DNA of 64,000 nucleotides from Candidatus Marinacidobacterium sp. (GTDB lineage Bacteria; Acidobacteriota; Vicinamibacteria; Marinacidobacterales; Marinacidobacteraceae). Both the position numbers and the translations under genes were made by a program. Shown here one piece after another: positions 47,595 through 61,161 of the stretch; the stretch's first letter is position 1, and each line of letters opens with the position of its first letter. The notes beneath the pieces were generated by a model. It worked only from the letters and a program-made list of their open reading frames with translations. It did no database searches and was not told the DNA's origin. The stretch covers positions 288,001-352,000 of the forward strand of contig OZ242011.1 in the NCBI GenBank assembly GCA_965204755.1, written 5' to 3'.

Positions 47595-49688
47595 TTACTT
47601 CCCGGCTTCGGGAAGCGCCAGCGCGACATAGGACTCGGGCACCCGTCCGCGCTGCCCGGTCTGCACCACGATGAACTGCCGGCCTTCGTGGAGGTAGGTC
47701 ATCATCCCGTACATCCCCGGCGCCGGAAGTTTCAAACTGCCCACCTTCTCGCCGGTCTTCTTGTCGTGGGCGTTCAACACCGGCGGCCCGGCCATTCCCT
47801 CGGTCGTGAGCAGCAGGTCGCCGCTGACCATCAGGATCGCCCGGCCCTGCCCGCCGACCCCGGTGAGGTCCACGCCTTCGAGCGCCGGATGGTTCTTGAT
47901 CCGGTCGTTCGGCTCGCCCACCGGCTTCCACCAGAGATGCTCGCCGGTGTTCATGTCGATCGCGGTGACCCGGCTGTACGGCGGCTTGTAGATCGGCAGC
48001 CCCTGCGGCCCCGGAACGCCGATGGTGCGGAAGTTCACCCAGTCGGAAACGGTTTCGCCGATGGTCGTGCACTTGCCGCCCGGCGAAGTGCAGTCGTGCT
48101 CCGGTTGGTCGGCGTCCACGCCCGGCTGCACCATGCGGCCCGAACAGGACGGCCCGGAGGACTGGTAGAGGATCCCGGTGGTCGGGTCGAGCGCCGCCGG
48201 GTGGGTGATGTTCACGCCGGCGGTGCTCCCGCAGGCGATCCACCCCTTGTTCTCGTCATACCCCTTCGGGACGGGAGGCATGTACGGCCCGCCGATCCGG
48301 TACTGGCCGGTGATCTCGAGCGCCTCCTGGTGGAGTTCGGGGGTATAGGCGATCAGGTTCTCCGGGGAGAGGTCGAGCGGCTCGAGCGGCTCGGGAACCG
48401 TCGGCCAGGGCTGGGTTTCGGCGAGTTTCTCGCCGGGCACGATGGACTCGGGCGCTTCGCGTTCCTCGATGGGCCAGACCGGCTCGCCGGTGTCCCGGTG
48501 GAAGGCGAAGGTGAACCCCTGTTTCGTGGTCTGGATCGCCATCGGCACGGACTCGCCGTCCACGGTTACATCCGCCAGGATCGGGACATTGGGGAGGTCG
48601 TAGTTCCAGATGGGGTGGTGCGTCGTCTGGAAGTGCCAGACCCGTTCGCCGGTGTCGGCGTCGAGCGCGATGACGCTGGTGCCGAACAGGTTGTCCCCCG
48701 GACGGAATCCGCCGTAGAAGTCGATCGTCGGCGCGTTCGTCGGGATGTACACGATCCCGCGGTCGAGGTCGGCGGAGAGCGGCGCCCACGACGAAACATC
48801 CCCGGTCCACCGCCAGGCGTCGTTCTCCCAGGTGTCCATCCCGAACTCCTCTTCGGAGCGGGGAATCACATGGAACTTCCACTTGTGTTCGCCGGTCTTC
48901 GCGTCGTAGCCGAGGATGTCGCCGGGGATGTTCTCGATGCGGGTCTGGTGGTAACCCTGCGCGTGCGAGTTGCCGACGACCACGGTCCCGTTCACCACGA
49001 TGGGCGGCGAGGAACTGGTGATGTATCCGACCGTCGGCGGAAGCCCCTCGTAGGGATCGTAGTTGTGGCCGAAGTCGGCGAGCAGGTCCACCACGCCGGT
49101 CTTCGGGAAACCGGGAATGTCCACCGGCTTCCCGAAACCCTCGAGGTGGTCGCCGGTGAGGCCGTCGAGGGCGTGGAGGAAGAACGCCGGGCTGATCACA
49201 TAGATGACGAGGCGGCCGTCCACCATCGCGTGCCCCACGCCCTTGCCGTAACTGGAGCGCATGGACTCTTCCCAGCGGCGGGTGGCGGGTTCGCGGTAGG
49301 TCCAGACCGTTTCGCCGGTCGCCGGATCCATGGCGACCACCGTCCGCCGGTAGCCGACGACGGTGTAGAGCAGTCCGCCGATGTAACTCGGCGTGGACTT
49401 GGAGAGGAAACTGGGTTTCGGCCCGTAGTTGTCGCCGCGCCACATCCAGGCGATTTCCAGGTCCTCGAAGTTCCCCGCGTCCACCTGGTCGAGCGTCGAG
49501 GAGCGCGTGCCCCAGGCGTCGCCGCTCTGGTACCGCCACTCGCCTTCCGGGTTGCCCCGGTCCTGGGCGGACGCGGCCGGCGCGAACGCGCCCGCGGACA
49601 GCCCGAGGAAGAGGAGCGCGGCGGCGGCGGAGGCGAAGGACCGCCGGGAGGCCGTCCGGGCCGGAAACAACATCGGGGGGATCGTCAT
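47595..49688 (-). CDS. PQQ-binding beta-propeller dehydrogenase (quinoprotein glucose dehydrogenase-like)
   Basis: Signal peptide, EWRYQSGD, SSPPIVV, RPGDNLFG, WHFQTTHHPIWNYD and KPPYSRVTAID. Confidence 0.9.
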   Translation of the reverse strand: MTIPPMLFPARTASRRSFASAAAALLFLGLSAGAFAPAASAQDRGNPEGEWRYQSGDAWGTRSSTLDQVDAGNFEDLEIAWMWRGDNYGPKPSFLSKSTPSYIGGLLYTVVGYRRTVVAMDPATGETVWTYREPATRRWEESMRSSYGKGVGHAMVDGRLVIYVISPAFFLHALDGLTGDHLEGFGKPVDIPGFPKTGVVDLLADFGHNYDPYEGLPPTVGYITSSSPPIVVNGTVVVGNSHAQGYHQTRIENIPGDILGYDAKTGEHKWKFHVIPRSEEEFGMDTWENDAWRWTGDVSSWAPLSADLDRGIVYIPTNAPTIDFYGGFRPGDNLFGTSVIALDADTGERVWHFQTTHHPIWNYDLPNVPILADVTVDGESVPMAIQTTKQGFTFAFHRDTGEPVWPIEEREAPESIVPGEKLAETQPWPTVPEPLEPLDLSPENLIAYTPELHQEALEITGQYRIGGPYMPPVPKGYDENKGWIACGSTAGVNITHPAALDPTTGILYQSSGPSCSGRMVQPGVDADQPEHDCTSPGGKCTTIGETVSDWVNFRTIGVPGPQGLPIYKPPYSRVTAIDMNTGEHLWWKPVGEPNDRIKNHPALEGVDLTGVGGQGRAILMVSGDLLLTTEGMAGPPVLNAHDKKTGEKVGSLKLPAPGMYGMMTYLHEGRQFIVVQTGQRGRVPESYVALALPEAGK

Positions 49689-49795
49689 CGGGAAGGTCCT
49701 CTCTCGCGCGGGCCGCCCGCCTCCCCCGCGGAGGGCGGCGGCGGGCGGCGAGCGCGGAATCCTACCGCCCGGCGCCCCGGCCGAGCCGTCCGGGC

Positions 49796-51994
49796 TCACC
49801 GCAGGACGAGGAACAGGTTCGAGTAGTCGTCCGTCCAGCGGTAGGCCTCTCCCGGCTCGGCGGCCTCCCCGGAAAACGGCCGGGCGCGGGAGAGGACGCT
49901 CGGGTCGGTGACGAAGTCGGAAGACCAGGTGATGAGCGCCCAGGTGGTCTCGTAGCGGTAGGCCTCCGGGTCCGGCTCGGTCTCGGTGAGCAGGGAGATG
50001 GCGCCGAGCGCGAGCGCCTGCGCCCGGATTACCGGCGCCAGGTCCACATGGCGGTTGGAGATGTGGGCGGCGATCACGCCGCCGGGGGCCAGCCGCCGCC
50101 GGTAGAGGTCGAACGCCTCGGCGGTGAGCAGGTGGACCGGGACGGCGTCCCCGGTGAAGGCGTCGAGGACGAGGACATCCCAGGGCGCCTCCCCGGCGGC
50201 TTCCTCCCGCTCGAGGCTGAGCCGCCCGTCGCCGAGGACGACCTCGACTTCCCCGGCGGCGTCGTCCAGATAGGTGAAGTAGCGGCGGGCCACCCGTTCG
50301 ACCTGCGGGTCGAGTTCGTAGAAGCGGAACCGGTCGCCGCTCCGGGAGCGCGCCGCCAGCGAACCGGCGCCGAGCCCCAGGATCCCCACCGAGAGCGGCT
50401 GCCCGGCGCGCCGCTTCGGGTGGCGGTCGAGCGCCGTCTTCACCCCGGTGCCCTCGTAGTAGTAGAGCATCGGCTCCCGACGGCGCCCCGGCGCGAGGCG
50501 CTGCGACCCGTGGCCGATCCCGCCGTGCCAGAGGTCGCGCCGCCACTCCGGGGTGTCCGGCGAGTCTTCCATCACCCGCACCGCGCCGTAGAAGTTCCGG
50601 CTGGCGTGGAGCGGCCTCCGGTGCTCCAGCCAGGTTACGGCGAGCGCCAGCCCGGCCACCCCGGCGAGGGCGCCCCGGAGCGCGGCGCGGGGCAGGCTCC
50701 GGGAGGTCGAGGCCGCGCCGGCGAACGGGGCGGCGGCGCCGAGGACCAGGGCGAGCGGGTATTCCCAGGTGTTCGGGAACAGGAGCGGGCTCAGCAGCGA
50801 GGCGGAGAGCCCGCCCGCCGCGCCCCCGGCGGTGAGGGAGAGGTAGAAGCCGGTCAGCCGGGCCGGCGCCGGGCGCCGCCGGGCGATCTCGGCGTGGGCG
50901 GTCCAGCCGGCGGCGAACAGGAAGGCGAGGCCGGCGGCGGCGTGCGAGAGGAGCGGCCGGTCGAGCCCGGTGGTGATGTCCGCGAGCCAGACCAGCAGGC
51001 AGGCGGCGGCGAGCAGGAAGACCGCCGGGGTCAGCGCGCGCCGCGGGAAGCGGTCCGGCGCGCCGAAGGCGAGGACGAAGGTGACCAGGTACACCGCGAG
51101 CGGGGCGATCCAGAGGAACGGCGCGGCGGCCACATCCCGGGTCAGATGGGTGGTTACGGAGACCAGGGCGAAGGACGCCGCGGCCGCGAGGAGGGCGGGC
51201 GCGAGGCGGGCGGCGAGGCGGGGCCGGGCCGGGGGCGGCGGGTCGGCGGCGGGGTCGGCGGGCGGGGGCGGTGTTCCGGCGGCTGGGTCTGGGGCCGGGG
51301 GCGGCGAGTCGGCGGCGGCCGTCGGTGGCGTTCCGGCGGCCGGGGCGGCGGCCGGGGGCGGCGGGTCGGCGGCGCGGCGGGTGAGCAGCGCGCCGGCGCC
51401 GACGGTGGCCGCGCCGAGGAGGGCGAATCCGGCCGTCCACCAGCCGGCCTGGGCGGCGACGCCGAGGAACGGCTCCACCGCGACCGGGTAGAGCAGGAGG
51501 CCGAGGAGCGAACCGGTGTTCGAGACCGCGAAGAACCGGTAGGGCGAACCGGAGGTCCCCTTGCGTCCGCCGCCCCCGGCCAGCCAGGCGGAGACCAGCG
51601 GGGTGGTCGCCGCGCCGAGGACGAAGGGCAACCCCGGCCCGGCGAGCAGGGTGAGCAGGATCCGCGGCCCCGGCGCCTCGCCGCCCGCCGGCGCCCACCC
51701 GGCGGCCGGCAGCGGGGGGAGGAAGAACAGGAGGGCGGCGACGACGAGCGCGGCGTGGACGGCCACCTGGCGGCGCCGCGGGACGCGCGTGGCGAGCAGG
51801 TGCGCGTAGAGGTAGCCGCCGAGCAGGGCGGTCTGGAAGAAGAACAGCGCCACCGCCCAGACCATCGGCGCCCCGCCGTACCAGGGCAGCAGCGCCCGGG
51901 CGGCGAGCGGCTGCACGGAGAAGAGCAGGAACGCCCCGAGGAAGATCGCCCCCCCGGCCAGCCACCGCGCCCCCCGGAGGGGGTCGATCCTCAA
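49796..51994 (-). CDS. Fused membrane (MFS-like)/spermidine-synthase-domain protein
   Basis: AFLLFSVQP, PYRFFAVSNTGS, RNFYG, GLGAGSL, YELDPQV, GDGR, LDAFTGD and WTDDYSN; start uncertain (TTG at 51994, or upstream through the array). Confidence 0.88.
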   Translation of the reverse strand: MRIDPLRGARWLAGGAIFLGAFLLFSVQPLAARALLPWYGGAPMVWAVALFFFQTALLGGYLYAHLLATRVPRRRQVAVHAALVVAALLFFLPPLPAAGWAPAGGEAPGPRILLTLLAGPGLPFVLGAATTPLVSAWLAGGGGRKGTSGSPYRFFAVSNTGSLLGLLLYPVAVEPFLGVAAQAGWWTAGFALLGAATVGAGALLTRRAADPPPPAAAPAAGTPPTAAADSPPPAPDPAAGTPPPPADPAADPPPPARPRLAARLAPALLAAAASFALVSVTTHLTRDVAAAPFLWIAPLAVYLVTFVLAFGAPDRFPRRALTPAVFLLAAACLLVWLADITTGLDRPLLSHAAAGLAFLFAAGWTAHAEIARRRPAPARLTGFYLSLTAGGAAGGLSASLLSPLLFPNTWEYPLALVLGAAAPFAGAASTSRSLPRAALRGALAGVAGLALAVTWLEHRRPLHASRNFYGAVRVMEDSPDTPEWRRDLWHGGIGHGSQRLAPGRRREPMLYYYEGTGVKTALDRHPKRRAGQPLSVGILGLGAGSLAARSRSGDRFRFYELDPQVERVARRYFTYLDDAAGEVEVVLGDGRLSLEREEAAGEAPWDVLVLDAFTGDAVPVHLLTAEAFDLYRRRLAPGGVIAAHISNRHVDLAPVIRAQALALGAISLLTETEPDPEAYRYETTWALITWSSDFVTDPSVLSRARPFSGEAAEPGEAYRWTDDYSNLFLVLR

Positions 51995-53757
51995 AGCGCC
52001 GATCCGCAAGCGCCCGCTCCGAAGGGGGTCGATCCGCAAGGGGCTCGATCCGTGGGGTGTCGATCCACGAGGGGGTCGATCCGTAGGGGCTCGACCCACA
52101 TGGGGGTCGATCCAGAAGGGGGTCGATCCGTCGGGGGTCGATCCGCAATGGCTCGATCCGTCGGGGGTCGATCCGCAAGGGCTCGATCCGTCGGGGGTCG
52201 ATCCGCAAGGGCTCGATCCGTCGGGGGTCGATCCGTAGGGTTCTCGATCCGTAGGGGTTCGATCCACAAGGGGGTCGATCCAGAAGGGGCTCGATCCGAA
52301 GGGCTCTCGATCCGTAGGGGCTCGACCCAGAAGGGGGTCGATCCGAGGGGGCTCGATCCGAAGGGGGTCGATCCGAGGGGGCTCGATCCGAAGGGGCTCG
52401 ATCCGAAGGGGCTCGATCCGAAGGGGCTCGATCCGAAGGGGCTCGATCCGTAGGGGGCTCGATCCGTAGGGGGCTCGATCCGAAGGGGCTCGATCCGTAG
52501 GGGGCTCGATCCGAAGGGGGTCGATCCGCAGGGGTCGCGATCGGCAGGGTCTCGACCCGTCGAGGCTCGATCCGCAGGGGGTCGATCCGCAAGGGTCGCG
52601 ATCCGCAAGGGGCTCGATCCGCAGAGGTCTCGATCCGAAGGGGGTCGATCCGCAAGGGTCGCGGTCCACAAGGGGCTCGATCCGCGGGGGGTCGAACGGC
52701 AAGGGGCTCGATCCGCAGGGGGCTCGATCCGAAGGGGCTCGATCCGTCGGGGGTCGATCCGTCGAGGGTCGATCCGTCGAGGGTCGATCCGTAGGGTTCT
52801 CGATCCGTAGGGGCTCGATCCACGGGGGGCTCGATCCACAAGGGGGTCGATCCGTAGGGGCTCGATCCGTAGGGGCTCGATCCGTAGGGGCTCGATCCGT
52901 AGGGGCTCGATCCGTAGGGGCTCGATCCGTAGGGGTCTCGATCCGAAGGGGGTCGATCCGCATGGGTCGCGATCCGCAGGGTCTCGATCGGTAGGGTCTC
53001 GATCGGCAGGGTCTCGATCGGCAGGGTCTCGATCGGCAGGGTCTCGATCCGTGGAGGCTCGATCCGCAGGGGGTCGATCCGCATGGGTCGCGATCCGCAA
53101 GGGGCTCGATGTGTGGAGGCTCGATCCGCAGAGGTCTCGATCCGAAGAGTGTCGATCCGCAAGGGTCGCGGTCCACAAGGGGCTCGATCCGCGGGGAGTC
53201 GAACGGCAAGGGGCTCGATCCGCAGGGGGCTCGATCCGTAGAGGCTCGATCCGGAGGGGGTCGATCCGCCGAGTTTCGACCCGCAGGGGGCTCGATCCGT
53301 GGGGTGTCGATCCGAAGGGGGTCGATCCGAAGGGGGTCGATCCGAAGGGGGTCGATCCGCGGAGTCTCGACCAGCAAGGGGTTCGATCCGCCGGGGCTCG
53401 ATCCACTTGGGCCTCGATCCGCAGGGGTCTCGATCCGCAAGGGGGTCGATCCGCCGGGGTCTCGATCCGCAAGGGGCTCGATCCGCAAGGGGCTCGATCC
53501 GTGGGGGCTCGATCCGTCGGGGCTCGATCCACAGGGGCTCGATCCGCCGGGGCTCGATCCACGAGGGGGTCGATCCGAAAAGGCTCGATCCACGAGGGGG
53601 TCGATCCGCAGGGACTCGATCCGTAGGGGCTCGATCCAAGGGATCGATCCGACGAAACGCGACTCGTAAGGACTCGATCCGCAGGGGCTCGATCCGTAGG
53701 GGCTCGATCCAGAAGGGGGTCGATCCGAGGGGGCTCGATCGGCAGGGGGCCGATCCC
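51977..53757. repeat. Degenerate minisatellite of roughly 115 units of 15-16 nt with TCGATCC core
   Basis: Units such as gaagggggtcgatcc and gtaggggctcgatcc; a higher-order duplicated block at about 52563-52730 and 53054-53236. Unit count estimated from length. Confidence 0.95.
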
Positions 53758-53844
53758 GCGCACCGCCGCTTCGGCGAACCGCCGCCGTCGGGCGGCGCTT
53801 TCCCGCAGGCCTTCCCGCGCGCCGCCGAGGGCGCTTCCGCTCAT
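51991..53844 (-). CDS. Possible low-complexity ORF translated through the array (or the frameshifted N-terminus of the downstream gene)
   Basis: GGAGGAG 9 nt before ATG 53844; its TGA overlaps the TTG of the next gene (TTGA). Confidence 0.35.
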   Translation of the reverse strand: MSGSALGGAREGLRESAARRRRFAEAAVRGIGPLPIEPPRIDPLLDRAPTDRAPADRVLTSRVSSDRSLGSSPYGSSPCGSTPSWIEPFRIDPLVDRAPADRAPVDRAPTDRAPTDRAPCGSSPLRIETPADRPPCGSRPLRIEAQVDRAPADRTPCWSRLRGSTPFGSTPFGSTPFGSTPHGSSPLRVETRRIDPLRIEPLRIEPPADRAPCRSTPRGSSPLWTATLADRHSSDRDLCGSSLHTSSPLRIATHADRPPADRASTDRDPADRDPADRDPADRDPTDRDPADRDPCGSTPFGSRPLRIEPLRIEPLRIEPLRIEPLRIEPLRIDPLVDRAPRGSSPYGSRTLRIDPRRIDPRRIDPRRIEPLRIEPPADRAPCRSTPRGSSPLWTATLADRPPSDRDLCGSSPLRIATLADRPPADRASTGRDPADRDPCGSTPFGSSPLRIEPLRIEPPTDRAPYGSSPFGSSPFGSSPFGSSPFGSSPLGSTPFGSSPLGSTPFWVEPLRIESPSDRAPSGSTPLWIEPLRIENPTDRPPTDRALADRPPTDRALADRPPTDRAIADRPPTDRPPSGSTPMWVEPLRIDPLVDRHPTDRAPCGSTPFGAGACGSAL

Positions 53845-53885
53845 CCCTTCACGCTCCTCCCGCTGCGTAGAATACGGGCCGCGCC

Positions 53886-54473
53886 ATGCCGAAACCCAAG
53901 TCCCGCCCCTCCCGTCCGCCCGCCGCTTCCGCCCCGCGTCCCGGCCCGAAACCGCCGGCGAAACGGCCCGCCGAGCCGACCGGCCGGGGGAGCGGCGCGC
54001 TGCTGCTCGTCGCCGGCCTCCTCGCCCTCGGCGGCGCGGTCTTCTTCATCTCCGCGTTCGAGGACGACACCACCGAGACCGCCTCCGCGATCTCGTACGA
54101 CACGCCGACAACGGAAGCGACCCAGGCGGCCGTCAAGACCTTCCCCTACTACGACAGCGCCGACGAAGCCAAGCCCTTCCCGGTGACGCTGCCCCCCTCG
54201 TCCTACAGCAACGAAACCCTGCAGCGCGCCTACGGCCTCGCCAAGGAGATCCCGGAAGTGCTCGCGCAACTCCCGTGTCTGTGCGGCTGCCACATGCAGG
54301 CGGAGGATCACGGCAGCCTGCTCGACTGCTATGTGGACGACCACGCCGCCACTTGAAGCACCTGTCTCCAGGAGGTCCTCCTGGCCAAGCAGATGCACGA
54401 CGACGGCGAAGAACCGGAAGCGATCCGCGAAGCGATCTACCGCCACGACTTCACGGACATCCCCCTCCGCTGA
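53886..54473 (+). CDS. Membrane-anchored PCYCGC/CYCXC-type selenoprotein (UGA at 54354 read as Sec)
   Basis: PCLCGC...HGSLLDCYVDDHAAT-UGA-STCLQEVLLAKQMHDDG...; the frame continues 38 codons to TGA 54471; SECIS-like hairpin downstream. Confidence 0.8.
54368..54384 (+). promoter_or_regulatory. Putative bacterial SECIS hairpin
   Basis: CCAGGAG-GUC-CUCCUGG starting 11 nt after the UGA; GGUC apex resembles the E. coli fdhF SECIS. Confidence 0.7.
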
Positions 54474-54510
54474 CCTGACCGCGCCGAAGGGCGCCACCCC
54501 GCCGCCGACC

Positions 54511-54598
54511 GGCGGGTAACACCGACGGGTAACGACCGGCCGGCAACAACTGGCCGGCAACAACTGGCCGGCAACGACTGGCCGGTAACGACTGGCGG
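54511..54598. repeat. About six degenerate 13-14-nt tandem repeats (ccggcaacaactgg)
   Basis: Visible directly in the intergenic region between convergent genes. Confidence 0.8.
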
Positions 54599-54745
54599 GC
54601 CGCCGCCCGCGGCGGCCGGGACGGGCAAGGCGGCCCCGCCCGATCGGGGCGGGATTCACGCCGACAGTCGAGCCGCCTCGAAGAGTCCTGCGGCCGACCG
54701 CGAGTGCCGGTCGTTATCGCAACTCGGCGCGTAGCGAAACCGGAC

Positions 54746-55730
54746 TCACCGCACCGACCGGAGTTCGGCGAGTTCCGCGAGGAGGTCCTCGATCGTCTCG
54801 TCGCCCGGCCATGCGCCTTTCAGCGCGTCCCGGTCGAAGTTCCTCGCTCGCTCGACGACTCCGGGAGGAATCGCCGCGGCGCCGGGAACATGGCCGCAAG
54901 GCGTTCGGTCGAACGCCTCATGCCGGTCGACCCGCGGCATCATGTGTCGAGCCAGCATCGCGCGCGGGCTTCCGTCGGCCCGGAAATGCACGACCCCGGT
55001 CACCGTGGCGTCCGTGCCCCACAGCGAACGCAACGCCTCTCGATCCACGGCCCCGGCGTCGAGTTGCCCGGGAAGGAAACTGCCGTCCTTCAGCCGGAGG
55101 AGGAACCGCCCGTCGTCGTGTTCGATGCCGTCGAGCCGACCGGTCACGATGAATCCCCTCGCCGGCGGGAGCATCCCGAGTCGCGCTTCGGCGCGGGCGG
55201 CCGCCGCTCGATCCCAGGCGAAGCCCCGCCCCCCGGCCTCGTCCGGCGTCAGCGCATACCCGGCGTCGGGATACCCGGCCGCCCGACCGAAGGCGAGCAT
55301 CGCTTCGAGTACGCCCCGGTCGTCGCACATACCGGGCGCCGTCTCCGATTCCCCGGTAACCGACCGAACGGCCTCCCCCACCAAGTCGAGCGCGGTGTCC
55401 TCGAGATCCACTCGTTCGCGCCCCTTCCGGAGCGGCGAGTACACGAACCGGTCGCGGGCGGTCTCGACCAGGCAGAACGCCCGAAAGCCGATCGAACCGG
55501 CGCCGAACCCGGTGATCGCGAAAGCCAGCGTCTCTTCGAGCCACTTCGGGCGCGCGCCGCGGGCGGTCGAGATCCCGGTGGCCCGGAGGCGCGTGACGCG
55601 TTCGGCCAAGCGCCGCAGGGCGCCGACGATCTTCGTGAGCGTTGCCTTCGGTATCTCGCCGCCGCGCGCGTCGAGCCCATCGACCCGGAGGGTGTAACCG
55701 CGTGTCTTCGAGAACTCGCCGATCTCCTTC
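54746..55730 (-). CDS. Hypothetical protein; reading frame extends upstream of the first canonical start (TTG 55609)
   Basis: The frame stays open upstream as KEIGEFSKTRGYTLRVDGLDARGGEIPKATL...; C-terminus GAWPGDETIEDLL. The start is unresolved. Confidence 0.6.
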
Positions 55731-55837
55731 GGCGGGCGCCGCCCCCTCGCGCCGACCGTCCGTCTTGCCCCGTCCGCCGTCCCGAACCATAGCGGCGGAC
55801 GGAGACCAGGCGCGGGAGCGGCCCCGGGACGGGGCGG

Positions 55838-58800
55838 TCAGCCTGCCTCCGCCTCGGCGCGGCGGGCGGCCGGCGGTCTCACATCCAGCACGCGCACTTC
55901 GACGCGATCCCGTTCCTCGGGAGTCAGGTTCTCGACCAGTCGGCGGTGCAACTGCTCGCGCGTCTCCGGGCGGATCCCCTTCGGAGGGCGCGCGATAGGT
56001 CGTGAGGCGCCGGAAACTCCGAACCACAGGACGAGGTAGATGCCTCGCCCCATCGCTTCCGGCATGGCCGCGTACTTGGGAATCAATTGCTCCCGTACGG
56101 CGGTCCAGAGATCGCGATGCCACTGGCGCTTGATCTCGATCGGTATGGCGAACCCGTCGCAGCGCACCAGCAGGTCCGACCGCGCGCCCCCGGCGTGGCG
56201 CGCCTCCGGCGCGATCGGGCAAGCGCTTCCCAGCCGCCCGCGCAGCGCGCCGAGCAGCGCGTCGCGACACGATTCCTCGGGTTTCGGTTCGACCGCGCCG
56301 CCATGCGAGTCCTCGTTCCAGAACGGCCGCCACGCGTTCTCGTCACTTCCGGCGAACTCCGCGGCCAGGTCGTCGAGATGGTCGGCGACGAACGCGGAGA
56401 GGTCCGCCGCGTTCGCCGGACGCCCCCCGCGCAGGGCCTCGGCGACGCGATCGGCGGAAGCGTGGCGGAAGCCGACATCGGCCACGGTCCGCCGCCGGCG
56501 ATCCCGGGCCGCCTCCAAGCGAGGGCGCCACCGGGACAGCGCCCGATCGGCGATGAGGGATTCGAGCGCCCTTCCGGCGTCGGCTCCCGCGGAGCGGCCG
56601 AGTCGGCGAATGAAGTCCGCGATCCGTTCGGGGGCCCGGTCGGCCAACCCCAGGACCCTGGCTTCGTAAGGCTCCTCCGGCCGGAACATGGCGCCGAAAC
56701 GGGTGACCAGCAGGCGGAGGGTGACCGGGTCCATCCCCTCGTCCGGAACACGCGCATCCAAGTCGGGGCACAGGAACACGGCGGCCTCCCGCGCGGCTTC
56801 CTCGTCCCGCGTCAGGGTTTCGAAGCGGTCACGGTAGGCGTCGGGCGCCGCCGCGAGACCCGCAGCCACCCAGTGCGGCCGCTGGGCCACGGTCATGCTC
56901 TTCGATGCCGCCTTTCGCGCGACAACGCGAAGCAACCCGTCCCGGTCGGCGTGGGCGATCGCAGCCCAGAGGAGCAGGTCGAGAACCTGCAGTTGACCGC
57001 CCAGACCGCGCACGGGAAAGCCGCTGAGCAGCGGCAGGGCCGCCTGGCGCGCTACGCCGGCGTATTGCCGGTCTCCCACCAGCAGGTCGAGGTGTACCCG
57101 ACTCTCGCTGCCTTTCGCGATCTCCGCCTTCGCCCAACGGACGAGAACTCTCGCCGTGAGTTCGGGTCGCGAGCGAGCGAGTTCCCGATACCAGGGCGGC
57201 GGCTCCAGGCGGTTCGTCGGGGCGGTGAAATAGAAGGCGAGCGCCCGAAGCCACTGATCGTCGCCCAGCGTCTCCAGGCGCTCGGGACACTCCCTCTCCA
57301 TGACTTCGAGACCGGCGAGGAACGGCCACGCGAGCGAGTGGATCCCCGAACTCGCGTGGAAATCGAAGATCGCGTCCTCGTCCGGGACATCGTCGCGCCA
57401 CGGCGCGCGCGCCAGGGCGCCGACGACCACCCGGCGCAGGGCCGGATCGGAGAGGCGCCAGCCCCGGCCCGGCGCGCTCAGGTACTCCTCGAGCGATCCC
57501 AGGTATTCCCAGGCGAGGCGGCGGAGCAGCGCCGGCGAGGCCCGGTTCTCGCGGAACGCCTCGAGTTCGTCCTCGATCCGTCGAGCCATCGCCGAGTCCC
57601 TCCTCCGCCGCTCCTCGACGAATGGCCGTTCCTGCTCGCGCAAGTCGAGATACCCGGCGGGGAGATCGGTCTTGAGCAACCGGCGGAAACGGGCCGCCAT
57701 TCCGCGACGGAAAGCCCGGCCAATCAGTTCCTTCGCGCGGATCCTTTCCGCGCCGGCCCTTTCGACCGCCCGTTCCAGCAACCAGTCCGCGAGAAGCGGT
57801 CGAGCGATCGCCATCTCGACCGCCAGGGAGAGGCAGAAGCGACCGAAGCCTTCGGGCGGGCGGGCGATTCCCAGGGTCGCCGCCACTTCCCGAACCGCCG
57901 GGTCGAAGTCCTCGGTTTCCGGACACCGCTCCCATCCTTCGCGCCAGAGTTCGACCAGTCGCTGCGGACGCGCTTCCAGCCACTTTCGGACCCGGAGCAC
58001 CGCTCCGTCCGAGCCGACGGTCGAGCGCTGCCGGCTTTCCCGGCCGAGGCGAAGCCAATCGTAGATCTCGGTAGTGGAAGCGCCATCGCCATGCTCCTCC
58101 ATACCCTGCGTCACCAACTCCAGCGGGAGGTGGGCGAGGAACCGATTCTCGAGCGCGGCCCAATGGTCGGGCAAACGAACCCGCAGCGCGGCGAGCAGCC
58201 CCGGAAGGCGCCCGGAGTGTTCGGCCTTCGTCAGGCTCCGGAGCCAGAAGCCGTCGTACCTCCCGACCAGTTGTTCCGGCTGGTCGAGCAGGTAGTCCCA
58301 GACCTGCTCGGGGGTGATCTCCTCCGGATACATCCGTCCCAGCAGAGTCCCCAACAGTTCGCGATAGTGATCGCTAACGACGCCGCTTCGAATGTCTCCC
58401 GCCAGTCGCCGAAGTTCGGCGCGCCGTCTCTTTTCGTCGACGCAGTTGTGGATGAAGGCGTCGAGCGCGTAACGGGTGACTTCGTACCATCTCGTCCCGT
58501 CGCGGGCGACTTCCATGAGTCGGTCGGCAAACGCGGGCATCGGCCGGCCGAGGCTCAGGGCCCGCGCCGCGATTCCGGCGAGTACTTGCGCCGAACGGCC
58601 GCGATCGGCGGATTCGAGTTCGGCGCGGAGCGTCGGCGCCATTTCGGGAACCGCCAGCAGTCGGAGGAAGTCCGCGGGGAAGCGGTGCGCGCCGAGTTCC
58701 GGCGCCGTCGCGCGCATCTCGCGGAGCAACCGGCGCTTGTCGGTCGGGGTGAAGTCGTGGATGTCGCCGTAGGCCGCGATCCCCACCGGATCCCGAACGA

Positions 58801-59893
58801 GGAGATGGGGCCGCGCCTTCGCCGAATGCGCGGCCAACCAGGCAGCCAAGCCGCGGAGCGGCGACGGAATGGCCTCCTTGTCGGTGCTCAACAGCGCGAG
58901 GACGCGGCCCACCGGCAAACCCTCCTCGATCCGGCGAGCCAGGTACCGCGCACCCAGGAACTCCGCCACTTGCCGGTGCGCCGGGGAGAACCGCTCGCTT
59001 CCTCCGTCGGAAGTGAAGAGCCCCGCGCCGAGCGCCGCCCGAGCCGCGAAGTCGGACGACGGCGCCAGGGAGTCGATCGCCGGCCAATCGTCGGTCGCGT
59101 CCTTCGCGTACCGCGAGCACCCCTCGGCGCCGGCGAGCAGGAGCGCCGCGTCGAGTTCACCGGCCGCATCCACCAGCGCGGCGGCGGCGAACCGTTCCTG
59201 CCCGGAGTGGAGATGCTCGTCGTTGTATTCGCCGGTCAGGCGCTCACAGGCCGCTTCCAGGACTTCGCGATAACTGTCCTGCCAAGTCCCGCCGGAGGCG
59301 GCGAAAGCGCGGATGGAATTCAGGAGGGCGAGCGGGTTCCGCAGCCACGCATGGAACCCCCGCGCTCTCGCCGCCTTCAGGAAACCGTCCGCCTCGGTCG
59401 AAGCCGGCGTCGAGGCAGGCAGGGAGCGGACGAACCGCTCGATCTCGAAGTCCCGAAGCGGTTCGAGCCGCAACACCTTCACTTCTCCCCCGGGCGCGGC
59501 CTCTTCCAGCGGGGTGACATCCGTCCGCCCGAACCAGTCCGCGGCGCGGCACGAAAGCCGGAACCGGCGGCGGCCCAAGGCGCGAAGGCGCTGCACCACC
59601 CGGTCGAGCGGCTCGCGCGGATCGCCGGACGCCGCGCGCACCTCGTCGAGCCCGTCGATGAAGAGCGTTCCCTCGCCGACCGGCTCTTCGGCCGGCAACC
59701 GCAGGAACTCGCGCGCCGAAAAGTACCGGGCGGCGTCGCCGAGCGCCTCCGCTTCCCGCCGGAACTCGAAGGTCTTGCCCGAACCGGGGTCGCCGAGCAG
59801 GACGAAGGCGGCCTCGCTTCGGAACGCGGACAGCGGCCGCGCCCCGCGGGCGGCATTCGCCGCTTCGGTGACCGTCCGTACGATCGGCTTCAT
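55838..59893 (-). CDS. NACHT/STAND-type NTPase with C-terminal PD-(D/E)xK-like nuclease (putative anti-phage)
   Basis: ATG 59893; Walker A LLGDPGSGKT, Walker B LFIDGLDE, LSCR, NPL, HRQVAEFLGA; C-terminal PEAR..RSDLL..PIEIKRQW..GIYLVLWFG. Confidence 0.8.
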   Translation of the reverse strand: MKPIVRTVTEAANAARGARPLSAFRSEAAFVLLGDPGSGKTFEFRREAEALGDAARYFSAREFLRLPAEEPVGEGTLFIDGLDEVRAASGDPREPLDRVVQRLRALGRRRFRLSCRAADWFGRTDVTPLEEAAPGGEVKVLRLEPLRDFEIERFVRSLPASTPASTEADGFLKAARARGFHAWLRNPLALLNSIRAFAASGGTWQDSYREVLEAACERLTGEYNDEHLHSGQERFAAAALVDAAGELDAALLLAGAEGCSRYAKDATDDWPAIDSLAPSSDFAARAALGAGLFTSDGGSERFSPAHRQVAEFLGARYLARRIEEGLPVGRVLALLSTDKEAIPSPLRGLAAWLAAHSAKARPHLLVRDPVGIAAYGDIHDFTPTDKRRLLREMRATAPELGAHRFPADFLRLLAVPEMAPTLRAELESADRGRSAQVLAGIAARALSLGRPMPAFADRLMEVARDGTRWYEVTRYALDAFIHNCVDEKRRRAELRRLAGDIRSGVVSDHYRELLGTLLGRMYPEEITPEQVWDYLLDQPEQLVGRYDGFWLRSLTKAEHSGRLPGLLAALRVRLPDHWAALENRFLAHLPLELVTQGMEEHGDGASTTEIYDWLRLGRESRQRSTVGSDGAVLRVRKWLEARPQRLVELWREGWERCPETEDFDPAVREVAATLGIARPPEGFGRFCLSLAVEMAIARPLLADWLLERAVERAGAERIRAKELIGRAFRRGMAARFRRLLKTDLPAGYLDLREQERPFVEERRRRDSAMARRIEDELEAFRENRASPALLRRLAWEYLGSLEEYLSAPGRGWRLSDPALRRVVVGALARAPWRDDVPDEDAIFDFHASSGIHSLAWPFLAGLEVMERECPERLETLGDDQWLRALAFYFTAPTNRLEPPPWYRELARSRPELTARVLVRWAKAEIAKGSESRVHLDLLVGDRQYAGVARQAALPLLSGFPVRGLGGQLQVLDLLLWAAIAHADRDGLLRVVARKAASKSMTVAQRPHWVAAGLAAAPDAYRDRFETLTRDEEAAREAAVFLCPDLDARVPDEGMDPVTLRLLVTRFGAMFRPEEPYEARVLGLADRAPERIADFIRRLGRSAGADAGRALESLIADRALSRWRPRLEAARDRRRRTVADVGFRHASADRVAEALRGGRPANAADLSAFVADHLDDLAAEFAGSDENAWRPFWNEDSHGGAVEPKPEESCRDALLGALRGRLGSACPIAPEARHAGGARSDLLVRCDGFAIPIEIKRQWHRDLWTAVREQLIPKYAAMPEAMGRGIYLVLWFGVSGASRPIARPPKGIRPETREQLHRRLVENLTPEERDRVEVRVLDVRPPAARRAEAEAG

Positions 59894-61161
59894 CGGTCCG
59901 GCTCCACCCAGTATCCCGCCGGAGCAGAGAGGAACTCCCCCAACGACATGCCGTCCGGGCCGACCAACACCTCGCTCGCGTGCGGGTAGCGCTCCCGGAA
60001 CGCCGCCAGACCTCGATGACGGGGCCCCCGCCTCCGGATGGTGACTTCGATGGCCGCGAGTTTGGGGCCCCGTTCGACGACGAAGTCCACTTCGAGCGCG
60101 CCTTCCCGCCAGTAGCGGACCCGCTCCCCGATCTCCCGGGTGTTCAGCAGGTGCGCCCCCACCGCGCTCGCCGCCAGCCGGCCCCAGAAGGTCCGATCGG
60201 CCCGCGCTTCCTCGAACGAACGCCCCGAGTCGAAAGTCATCAGGGAAGTGTCGAGGACATTGAGTTTGGGGCTCGAAGGCCGCATCGAGAACGGTCCGGC
60301 GTACTGTTCGAGCCCGGCGACGAGGCCGATGCGTTCGAGGAGGTCGAGATAACGGGCGAGCGTGGTCGTGTTCGACTTGTCCGCCAACTGGCCGCGCATC
60401 TTGTTGTAGGAGAGGATCTGCCCCGACAGGCCCGCGGAGAACTCGAAGAGCCGGGTCAGGAGCGCCGGCCGGTCGATCCGCGCCCTGGCGATCAGGTCGC
60501 GCTCGAGGCTCGCGTCCACCACCGATCGGCGGATGCAGGCGCGCCACGACCGGGGATTCGCCTCGTCCGGCCGGGCGCCCGGATAGCCGCCGAAGAACAG
60601 GAACCGGTCGAGGTCCACGCCGAAGGCCGCCTTCATCTCCCCGAAGGACCACGGGCCGGTCTCGATCATGTCCAACCGGCCCATGAGACTCCCGCCCGAG
60701 CCGTGCTGCATCATCAGCGGCGACGAACCCGAAATCACGACCCGCAACGGGCAGTCCCGAAAGCGGTCCGCGTCCCAGAGCCCTTTCACGGTTCGGGACC
60801 AGTGGGGCACGCCCTGGATTTCGTCGAGGGCGAGAACGAACCCCCGAGGATCGTTCTCCGCCTGTTCGCGCGCCCACTGCCAGATCTCCGCCAGCCAGTT
60901 CGCGTCCCGAACCACCAGCGGCGCGAACGGCGCACCCGGAAGGTCCGGCAGGTCCGGCGCCCGGTCGCGGTGGGCGGTCGACCCCATCCGGCCCAACGCG
61001 ACCAGGCCCGATGGCAACCCGCAACGCCCCAACGCCTGGCGAATGATGGTCGTCTTCCCCGTCCGGCGAGGCCCGAAGACCGCCTGGACCCGCTCCGGCG
61101 CCTCCACCAGCCGCTCCCGCAGGACCGCCACCTGCTCCCGCTCGAACTCCTGCCGCCGCAT
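59890..61161 (-). CDS. AAA_14 ATPase with DUF4143 domain
   Basis: GPRRTGKTT, LDEIQ, SGSS, GGYP, PKLNVLD and YWREGALEVDFV motifs. Confidence 0.9.
   Translation of the reverse strand: MRRQEFEREQVAVLRERLVEAPERVQAVFGPRRTGKTTIIRQALGRCGLPSGLVALGRMGSTAHRDRAPDLPDLPGAPFAPLVVRDANWLAEIWQWAREQAENDPRGFVLALDEIQGVPHWSRTVKGLWDADRFRDCPLRVVISGSSPLMMQHGSGGSLMGRLDMIETGPWSFGEMKAAFGVDLDRFLFFGGYPGARPDEANPRSWRACIRRSVVDASLERDLIARARIDRPALLTRLFEFSAGLSGQILSYNKMRGQLADKSNTTTLARYLDLLERIGLVAGLEQYAGPFSMRPSSPKLNVLDTSLMTFDSGRSFEEARADRTFWGRLAASAVGAHLLNTREIGERVRYWREGALEVDFVVERGPKLAAIEVTIRRRGPRHRGLAAFRERYPHASEVLVGPDGMSLGEFLSAPAGYWVEPDR

Follow-up and report, generated by a model that had tools for sequence, protein, structure and literature searches.

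Why should a seven-nucleotide motif be kept nearly unchanged, unit after unit, along a bacterial intergenic spacer? The question was raised by a 64,000-nucleotide stretch of Candidatus Marinacidobacterium sp. (assembly GCA_965204755.1, contig OZ242011.1, positions 288,001 to 352,000 of the forward strand; hereafter the window), in which a tandem array of about 116 units of 15 or 16 nt, each built around TCGATCC, occupies positions 51974..53756 of the plus strand. Few bacteria have non-coding satellites of kilobase size, and what the known ones do is unsettled. In the 3.98-Mb host genome (G000) and in its single congener (G001), related arrays offer a natural experiment in which place, orientation, unit length and linker have changed and only a box of 11-12 bp has stayed. 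Comparison of these arrays led us to favour, tentatively, the reading that a sequence-specific protein recognizes the box on the DNA.

Anatomy of the TCGATCC array

The array of the window, located at about 340k in the host genome, was reported by Tandem Repeats Finder (TRF) as a single array (51974-53756) with a period of 15, 116.1 copies, 77% matches, 4% indels and a score of 1532; a period of 31 nt (57.9 copies) was also called. A unit parse anchored on TCGATCC, in which up to 2 substitutions were allowed, yielded 117 anchors, 93 of them with the exact core. Both counts agree with the array of about 115 TCGATCC units described in an earlier note made from the DNA letters (the sequence-only reading). 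Successive anchors are separated by 15 nt in 68 cases, by 16 nt in 43 and by other distances in 5, and 111 of the 116 parsed units are regular 15- or 16-mers. The mean unit length is 15.36 nt, or about 1.46 helical turns, as expected from the mixed lengths of about 1.5 turns that had been noticed earlier. Read on the plus strand, the unit consists of TCGATCC, a G, a free head of 2-3 nt (CAA, TA, CA, AA, TC and others), a run of 3-5 G and an optional C. The exact core is found in 91 of the 111 regular units and the G at position 8 in 95; among 100 cleanly parsed units, the G run measures 2 (7 units), 3 (17), 4 (37), 5 (37) or 6 (2) nucleotides. A strict two-unit pattern matched the 3.98-Mb genome 40 times, each time within this array, and the reversed pattern used as control gave no match.

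The 111 regular units fall into 60 types, and the array shows organization above the level of the unit. Identical units follow one another in runs of up to five, in line with the local homogeneous runs seen by the sequence-only reading; the longest run, of five identical 15-mers (52847..52921, plus strand), is a sign of recent local amplification. At 52123..52227 (plus strand), TRF and the unit parse revealed a 31-nt dimer in which the tails GTCGGGGG and GCAAGGGC alternate. The block of about 170 bp that was said to recur some 490-500 bp away was located precisely: its two plus-strand copies, at 52611..52783 and 53118..53290, are 173 nt long, lie 507 bp apart and align without gaps at 92% identity. 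The regular order is interrupted at 53631..53673, also on the plus strand, where the parse found two irregular units in succession, of 13 and 30 nt, the second containing non-repeat sequence. Three degenerate units (51984..52028, plus strand) form one edge, and the first of them contains the probable TTG start (51994-51992) of a minus-strand gene.

Independent evidence for the array was found in public assemblies. Four public runs, which come from 3 studies, have assembled contigs that contain array-specific pieces with 0-3 differences (97-100% identity), and some of the contigs continue beyond the array on one side or the other. An artefact of one assembly, the suspicion that an absence of read support would have fed, can therefore be dismissed. 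This support is piecewise, and one of the 4 runs may be the source sample; as no contig spans the whole array, its total length is without independent confirmation. In run X7, contigs have joints that skip 52 and 819 bases within the array, although short-read contigs of repeats are unreliable. Among the 8 strain differences listed within the array, 7 fall outside the 7-nt core (p=0.06); a further 89 differences are spread across the whole stretch. Several of the runs carrying matching DNA are labelled as sponge or marine metagenomes, and the array-bearing organisms are two related sponge-associated Acidobacteria.

The array is non-coding

All three minus-strand frames are open across the array, and one holds an open reading frame (ORF) of 617 amino acids with its ATG at 53844, which could be taken for a protein-coding repeat. 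These frames are open because the unit contains no stop codon on the minus strand, and the mixture of 15- and 16-nt units moves the reading frame 43 times along the array. The guanine-cytosine (GC) content lies between 0.59 and 0.74 at all three codon phases of the array, but third positions in the flanking minus-strand gene have 0.93-1.00; no codon-position GC periodicity was detected, whereas real genes reach third-position values of at least 0.9. Relatives of the array have periods of 16, 19 and 121 nt, which also does not fit a coding repeat. With array pieces in independent contigs from 3 studies, the chance that the array is either a protein-coding repeat or an assembly artefact is very slight. 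Arrays of this kind break short-read assemblies and yield long spurious ORFs, of which the 617-codon frame is an example.

A conserved box between free linkers

When adjacent units of the window array were compared, 0.06 differences per site were counted in the core and 0.317 in the tail (45 and 288 differences, respectively), and 11 distinct cores were found for 51 distinct tails. The core thus varies fivefold less than the rest of the unit; the corresponding binomial p of 1e-35 overstates the contrast, since the units are not independent. An exact core in 91 of 111 units with divergent tails points to a constraint that acts on every unit and not just on a few founders.

The same contrast was observed beyond this locus. 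A logo of 13 arrays from the two species, which was anchored on exact cores and is informative only at the flanking positions, gave a shared element close to GG-(G/T)-G-(G/C)-TCGATCC-G, whose fixed positions (GG.G.-TCGATCC-G) are invariant or close to it, the 15/16-mers of the congener having CGG-(C/G)-TCGATCC. Linkers vary in both sequence and length across the 13 arrays, and the family-wide box is 11-12 bp long, about GG-S-TCGATCC-G. With the core more constant than its tails and the box kept in 13 arrays of two species, conservation exceeds what neutral slippage would give, the possibility on which the sequence-only reading had made its own proposal depend. Outside the arrays, the observed/expected ratio is 1.01 for TCGATCC, 0.98 for GATC and 1.21 for TCGA; the TCGATCC motif, at chance frequency there, matters only within arrays.

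An array family in two genomes

A whole-genome core scan of the host revealed at least five further intergenic arrays sharing the box, with a spacing of 24-35 nt. They include an array of 33-nt units at 1840190-1840521, one of 24-35-nt units at 2161901-2163136, and one at 2587767-2589887 in which four sub-units of 28-32 nt make up a 121-nt higher-order repeat; the array at 2780725-2782400 has the same 121-nt design in inverted orientation. A further core cluster was located at 755752-755972, and small clusters near 245.5k and 745.0k. All core arrays of this genome are placed between genes, as judged by gene calling from third-position GC, and an inverted half-unit occurs only in the sister arrays at 2162k, 2588k and 2781k. 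Two 21-nt arrays, at 1021768 and 1469449, were set aside as they look like coding heptads. In the congener, at least seven arrays of 0.8-2.7 kb were found, with units of 15, 16, 19, 20 and 29 nt; they often pair two unit types side by side, with 75-88% similarity among the arrays over stretches longer than 1 kb. The search for similar arrays in the genome and its relatives, which had been advised together with the first description, thus gave at least six arrays sharing the box in the host and at least seven in the congener. The family amounts to about 0.2% of the genome.

Its distribution was found to be narrow. The strict 15/16-nt pattern has matches in 2 of 61 genomes, the host and the congener. 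A triple-core pattern gave 223 matches in the host and 553 in the congener. No other genome of the class, among 299 searched, exceeded 14; the matches listed there are coding or simple repeats. Among the genomes searched, the array family is confined to one genus. No related array was found in a viral collection (95 loci), nor in metagenomes (at least 120 loci) among the matches listed; both returned only unrelated coding repeats of 9, 15 or 18 nt and 8-nt simple repeats. A viral contig (L141, about 1501-1587) carries 14 copies of a 16-nt unit with the core GTCGATCCG.

Turnover of array positions

The positions of the arrays were compared between the two species, and none of the 4 sites checked is common to both. 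For two array sites of the congener, the matching host spacers (on the asparaginase side, and between a response regulator and a TonB receptor) measure 247 bp and about 340 bp and contain no array. Conversely, the host has an array upstream of selB, where the congener has none. Orientation, spacing (15 to 35 nt) and neighbouring genes all vary from one array to another. Seeding from a pre-existing copy of the motif was considered and rejected, the empty homologous spacers being devoid of TCGATCC. The GC skew of the genome is weak and irregular, with dnaA at 1.82 Mb.

The site of the window array is likewise empty in the nearest relative. The array lies between a 732-amino-acid gene and a divergent neighbour (both described below), and no TCGATCC array was found between them at any of 17 orthologous loci. 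The spacer is short and array-free at 16 of the 17; in the nearest relative (64% amino acid identity) it holds unrelated repeats, so that the same spacer attracts repeats in both species. These repeats (L031:5709-5999) extend over about 330 bp and consist of a 24-nt unit (8.3 copies) and a 15-nt unit (4.7 copies), without TCGATCC.

Two sister arrays have an additional element at their borders. A dispersed element of about 330 bp with inverted AAAGTGG(G)ACA motifs is whole and array-free at G000:C1:1410094-1410428 and 585789-586146, and half of it flanks one side of each of the 2588k and 2781k arrays (L059:6772-6846 and L060:6553-6725). These arrays are mutually inverted and 190 kb apart, which would fit an array-bearing element split by an inversion.

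A proposed protein-read box and its alternatives

How can these observations be explained? In the explanation that we favour, a unit would be made of a constrained 11-12-bp box and a free linker, and arrays would arise within ordinary intergenic spacers. Replication slippage and unequal exchange would make them grow and reshuffle them, leaving the identical runs, the 31-nt dimers and the duplicated 173-nt block, and gain and loss of arrays would outpace the divergence of the two species. Since the box persists from unit to unit and linker, unit length, orientation and position change, recognition by a protein appears as its best explanation; neutral slippage does not account for a box that is retained by nearly all units of all arrays in the two species. 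We give this reading a probability of about 0.45. Each array would then be a dense row of sites for a hypothetical protein of the lineage. As array sites are not positionally conserved, any benefit would be global, for instance through binding sites held in reserve or used as a sink, or through nucleoid organization, and would not lie in the regulation of neighbouring genes. The protein-binding array put forward by the sequence-only reading stays in this way the most plausible proposal, on the strength of core conservation; binding itself we infer from that conservation. Several observations weigh against it. No gene family recurs beside the arrays. A spacing that ranges from 15 to 35 nt implies that there is no constant helical phase, and the box is asymmetric, with symmetric positions at only 4 of 5 in the host genome, and is therefore unlike a classic dimer operator. 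The family is present in two genomes only, its conservation rests on one species pair, and these two species could exchange DNA; unconserved array positions would equally be expected of a purely selfish element.

A selfish or neutral satellite is the main rival, which we consider less probable, though by no means negligible. The box would be kept because seeding, by site-specific nicking or recombination, needs it, or through recent descent from one master copy, possibly exchanged between co-occurring species, while error-prone amplification alters the linkers. The failure to find a shared array site (0 of 4) is in agreement with such an origin, as is the arbitrary orientation of the arrays to their neighbours, illustrated by two paralogous hmaB genes of the congener with opposite upstream arrays; spacers of any kind host arrays, and the genome has other, unrelated repeat families, one of them restricted to it. 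Slippage has no need of a given sequence, yet 91 of 111 units have the exact core while neighbouring tails differ at 0.32 per site. Moreover, no mobility gene recurs at the arrays, and the REP-associated Y1 (RAYT) transposase PF01797 has no match in either the host or the congener, although it is present in 19 of 31 related genomes searched. A role as RNA has little probability. The array would act as the long 5' leader of a divergent gene or as a non-coding RNA sponging an RNA-binding protein, its minus strand bearing one GGAUCGA per unit. It runs to the start codon of the 732-amino-acid gene, whose transcript must therefore begin in or beyond the array, and at other loci 51-102 nt separate the array end from a start codon. 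The minus-strand RNA would be unusually unstructured (z=+3.36; 200 of 200 shuffles fold at least as well), which would suit such a role, but neither strand shows structure beyond the shuffled controls (z=+0.65 for the plus strand). A scan of 49000-57000 gave no Rfam match in the array, its only hit being a chance microRNA match outside it at 49223-49299 (E=0.17); promoter-like and terminator-like sites in the array numbered zero each, and neighbouring genes can have the array in either orientation, which also speaks against a transcript.

The unit itself suggests two further possibilities, both raised by the sequence-only reading. Each unit has overlapping TCGA and GATC sites, at a density of about 55 per kb, whereas the genome as a whole has 6.3 GATC per kb; an array could be a methylation-dependent element that offers a dense methyltransferase target, reads or sequesters hemimethylated sites, or serves as a restriction decoy. 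Both palindromes lie within the core, restriction-modification genes are abundant in the genome, and the host and the congener have one homologue each of the D12-class (Dam family) methyltransferases, whose specificity cannot be read from sequence. Outside the arrays, the ratios given above show neither avoidance nor enrichment of any of the three motifs GATC, TCGA and TCGATCC, and the decoy proposal lost its footing; the box GG-S-TCGATCC-G is also longer than a 4-bp methylation site needs, and asymmetric. We regard this explanation as distinctly improbable. A G-quadruplex formed on the plus strand is more improbable still: a run of at least 3 G occurs in 93 of 100 parsed units, one per 15-16 nt, but the loops would be 10-12 nt long, against at most about 7 nt in the motif definition. 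The G run is not a family-wide feature, being replaced by GGTGG or ATCGG in the congener, with a spacing of 24-35 nt elsewhere; as a selected feature, the quadruplex is thus not supported. A resemblance of the core to a tRNA T-arm or to a DnaA box was dropped too, because the flanks do not fit.

If the box is read by a protein, as we favour, a wider proposal can be formulated, which we offer as unlikely but conceivable. The arrays may be a bacterial counterpart of the box-bearing satellites of eukaryotes: a genus-specific protein would coat multi-kilobase rows of boxes at half a dozen chromosomal sites or more, with a role in organizing the nucleoid or as a tunable sink of that protein, and arrays would move, expand and collapse by a 'library' dynamic, selection acting to keep the box and the overall number of sites, whichever loci hold them. 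The functionality of bacterial satellites becomes a testable question, that of which factor reads the box.

Comparison with known repeat systems

The arrays belong to the satellites, or tandem repeats: their copies are arranged head to tail, are untranslated and occupy several loci per genome. A survey of 261 reference prokaryotes describes non-coding transposed satellite families as rare and reports them in Leptospira interrogans and Methanocella conradii (PMC6749651). Those families are likewise intergenic head-to-tail arrays scattered in one genome, restricted to a species or genus and without a known function; their repeats are of fixed size, 37-69 nt, whereas here a constant short box is set in units of 15 to 35 nt, with 116 copies in one array and a higher-order structure. 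Tandem repeats of Bacillus have a constant size (52 or 20-21 nt) and a variable sequence, and nucleoid-protein binding or small RNAs have been proposed for them (PMC8161180). They share with the present family several arrays per genome, lineage specificity and a non-coding nature, and they follow the opposite rule, since here the sequence box is fixed and the size is free.

Like REP, BIME and REPIN elements, the arrays are dispersed, lineage-specific intergenic repeats that are sometimes clustered. The units, in contrast, are not palindromic (fold z of +0.65 and +3.36) and the copies point in one direction; with no Y1 transposase in either genome, an origin of the REP type was rejected. CRISPR arrays also alternate a constant repeat with variable sequence, but they have repeats of about 23-50 nt and unique spacers of similar length. 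Here the variable part is 2-9 nt long, sister arrays reaching about 20 nt, and it returns as part of the higher-order repeats; in the absence of unique spacers, we concur with the sequence-only reading that this is not a CRISPR. No published description of the TCGATCC array family was found in open-access full text.

Short direct repeats arranged head to tail are also found in plasmid centromere and iteron arrays (R1 parC, pBtoxis tubC, F sopC and the pSM19035 heptads), in which 4-13 of them lie beside par or rep genes and one protein binds cooperatively. The present array differs in having 116 chromosomal units, with relatives at many loci, and no adjacent partition or replication gene: a Pfam search of the genes flanking the window array and 12 sister arrays found no par or rep gene. 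In eukaryotes, the alpha-satellite with its CENP-B box has a short conserved box in variable monomers, higher-order repeats and local homogenization, and its evolution is described by a 'library' model. The TCGATCC arrays share with it the higher-order repeats, the local homogenization, the short box kept in variable monomers, a family common to relatives and variants amplified at different places; they differ in belonging to a bacterium, in having units ten times shorter, in making up about 0.2% of the genome and in having no demonstrated link to segregation. By analogy, the two-species pattern resembles this library behaviour, with a common family from which different variants would have been amplified at different places.

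Genes adjoining the arrays

The minus-strand gene at 49796..51994 encodes a fused MFS/spermidine synthase-like membrane protein of 732 amino acids (NCBIfam NF037959, 61.7 bits for a cut-off of 40), for which a Pfam search returned no family. It has orthologues at 17 loci, which start 4-5 residues ahead of a conserved R-x-W-L/I-S-G motif. The nearest in-frame start is the TTG at 51994, within the first degenerate unit, and the array therefore reaches or overlaps the first codons of the gene. An array placed in this manner can displace promoters, and arrays may drive rearrangements. On the other side, a plus-strand gene at 53886..54356, divergent from the former, encodes a small CYCXC/PCYCGC-like protein of 156 amino acids, with profile matches below the cut-off. 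The two genes are syntenic in relatives, being adjacent in 4 that were compared (L031, L032, L033 and L038, among the 17 loci). Inside the MFS/spermidine synthase-like gene, window 51180-51400 is GC-rich and of low complexity (TRF periods 3-33) and encodes a Pro/Ala-rich linker.

The sequence-only reading had placed a defence-like cluster about 1 kb from the array. The cluster is real: on the minus strand, it consists of an EruA-like NACHT gene of 1351 amino acids (55838-59893), which with 750.8 bits falls short of the equivalog cut-off of 1000, and a PDC-S01 ATPase gene (AAA_14 plus DUF4143; 59890-61161). The cluster lies 2.1-7.4 kb from the array end, and thus begins farther away than stated, and has no syntenic counterpart in the nearest relative. 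HmaB, DrmD-like, PDC-S01 and type I or type III restriction-modification genes are found next to several arrays. The control consisted of 95 genes from eight random 18-kb regions, one gene of 5219 amino acids being left out for its size. At 1e-8, PADLOC matches were obtained for 15 of the 95 control genes; compared with these, the array-flanking genes gave 6 of 26 (Fisher p=0.39) and the neighbouring genes 14 of 63 (p=0.40). An association of arrays with defence islands, being no higher than in random genes, was rejected; the genome is rich in defence genes overall.

In the congener, 3 of the 7 arrays adjoin copies of hmaB (DUF1156 methylase), which are intact (L049:2906-5836), split (L053:2807-5795) or reduced to a fragment next to a DDE transposase (L051:6421-7404), and the arrays upstream of two of these paralogues lie in opposite orientations. 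No array was found upstream of any of the three hmaB copies of the host. Directly downstream of a host hmaB, G000:C1:245560-246000 (inside L061) contains short GACACATGC-type repeats and four copies of the box.

Other repeats in the host genome

A second, unrelated repeat family was observed in the host. It comprises nine bipartite elements, each with two sets of 4-8 directly repeated AT-rich cores (GAATTGTGTATAG plus C/G and T) on either side of a spacer of about 190-235 bp, the cores being spaced by 20-21 or 30-31 bp. One element is at L056:7034-7431 (G000:C1:756033-756431) and the others lie inside L285-L292; all 102 genomic occurrences of TTGTGTATAG fall in the nine loci. No member of this family was found in 40 relatives, the congener included. 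The central spacer bears a GGATCG(A/G) motif, one element abuts the TCGATCC mini-array at 755k, and the genes beside the elements are mutually unrelated.

Coding repeats are also extensive. About 108 kb (G000:C1:850503-958533) are dominated by a tandem repeat of 387 nt, or 129 codons, with up to 276 copies by TRF, which presumably corresponds to genes for giant repeat-domain proteins, and further genes with repeats of 342-405 nt are found elsewhere in the genome. Finally, a 15-nt repeat present in 29 copies on the minus strand at G000:C1:1433183-1433607 is in frame and would encode a lysine-rich pentapeptide (KKA-T/A-R) resembling a histone-H1-like tail.

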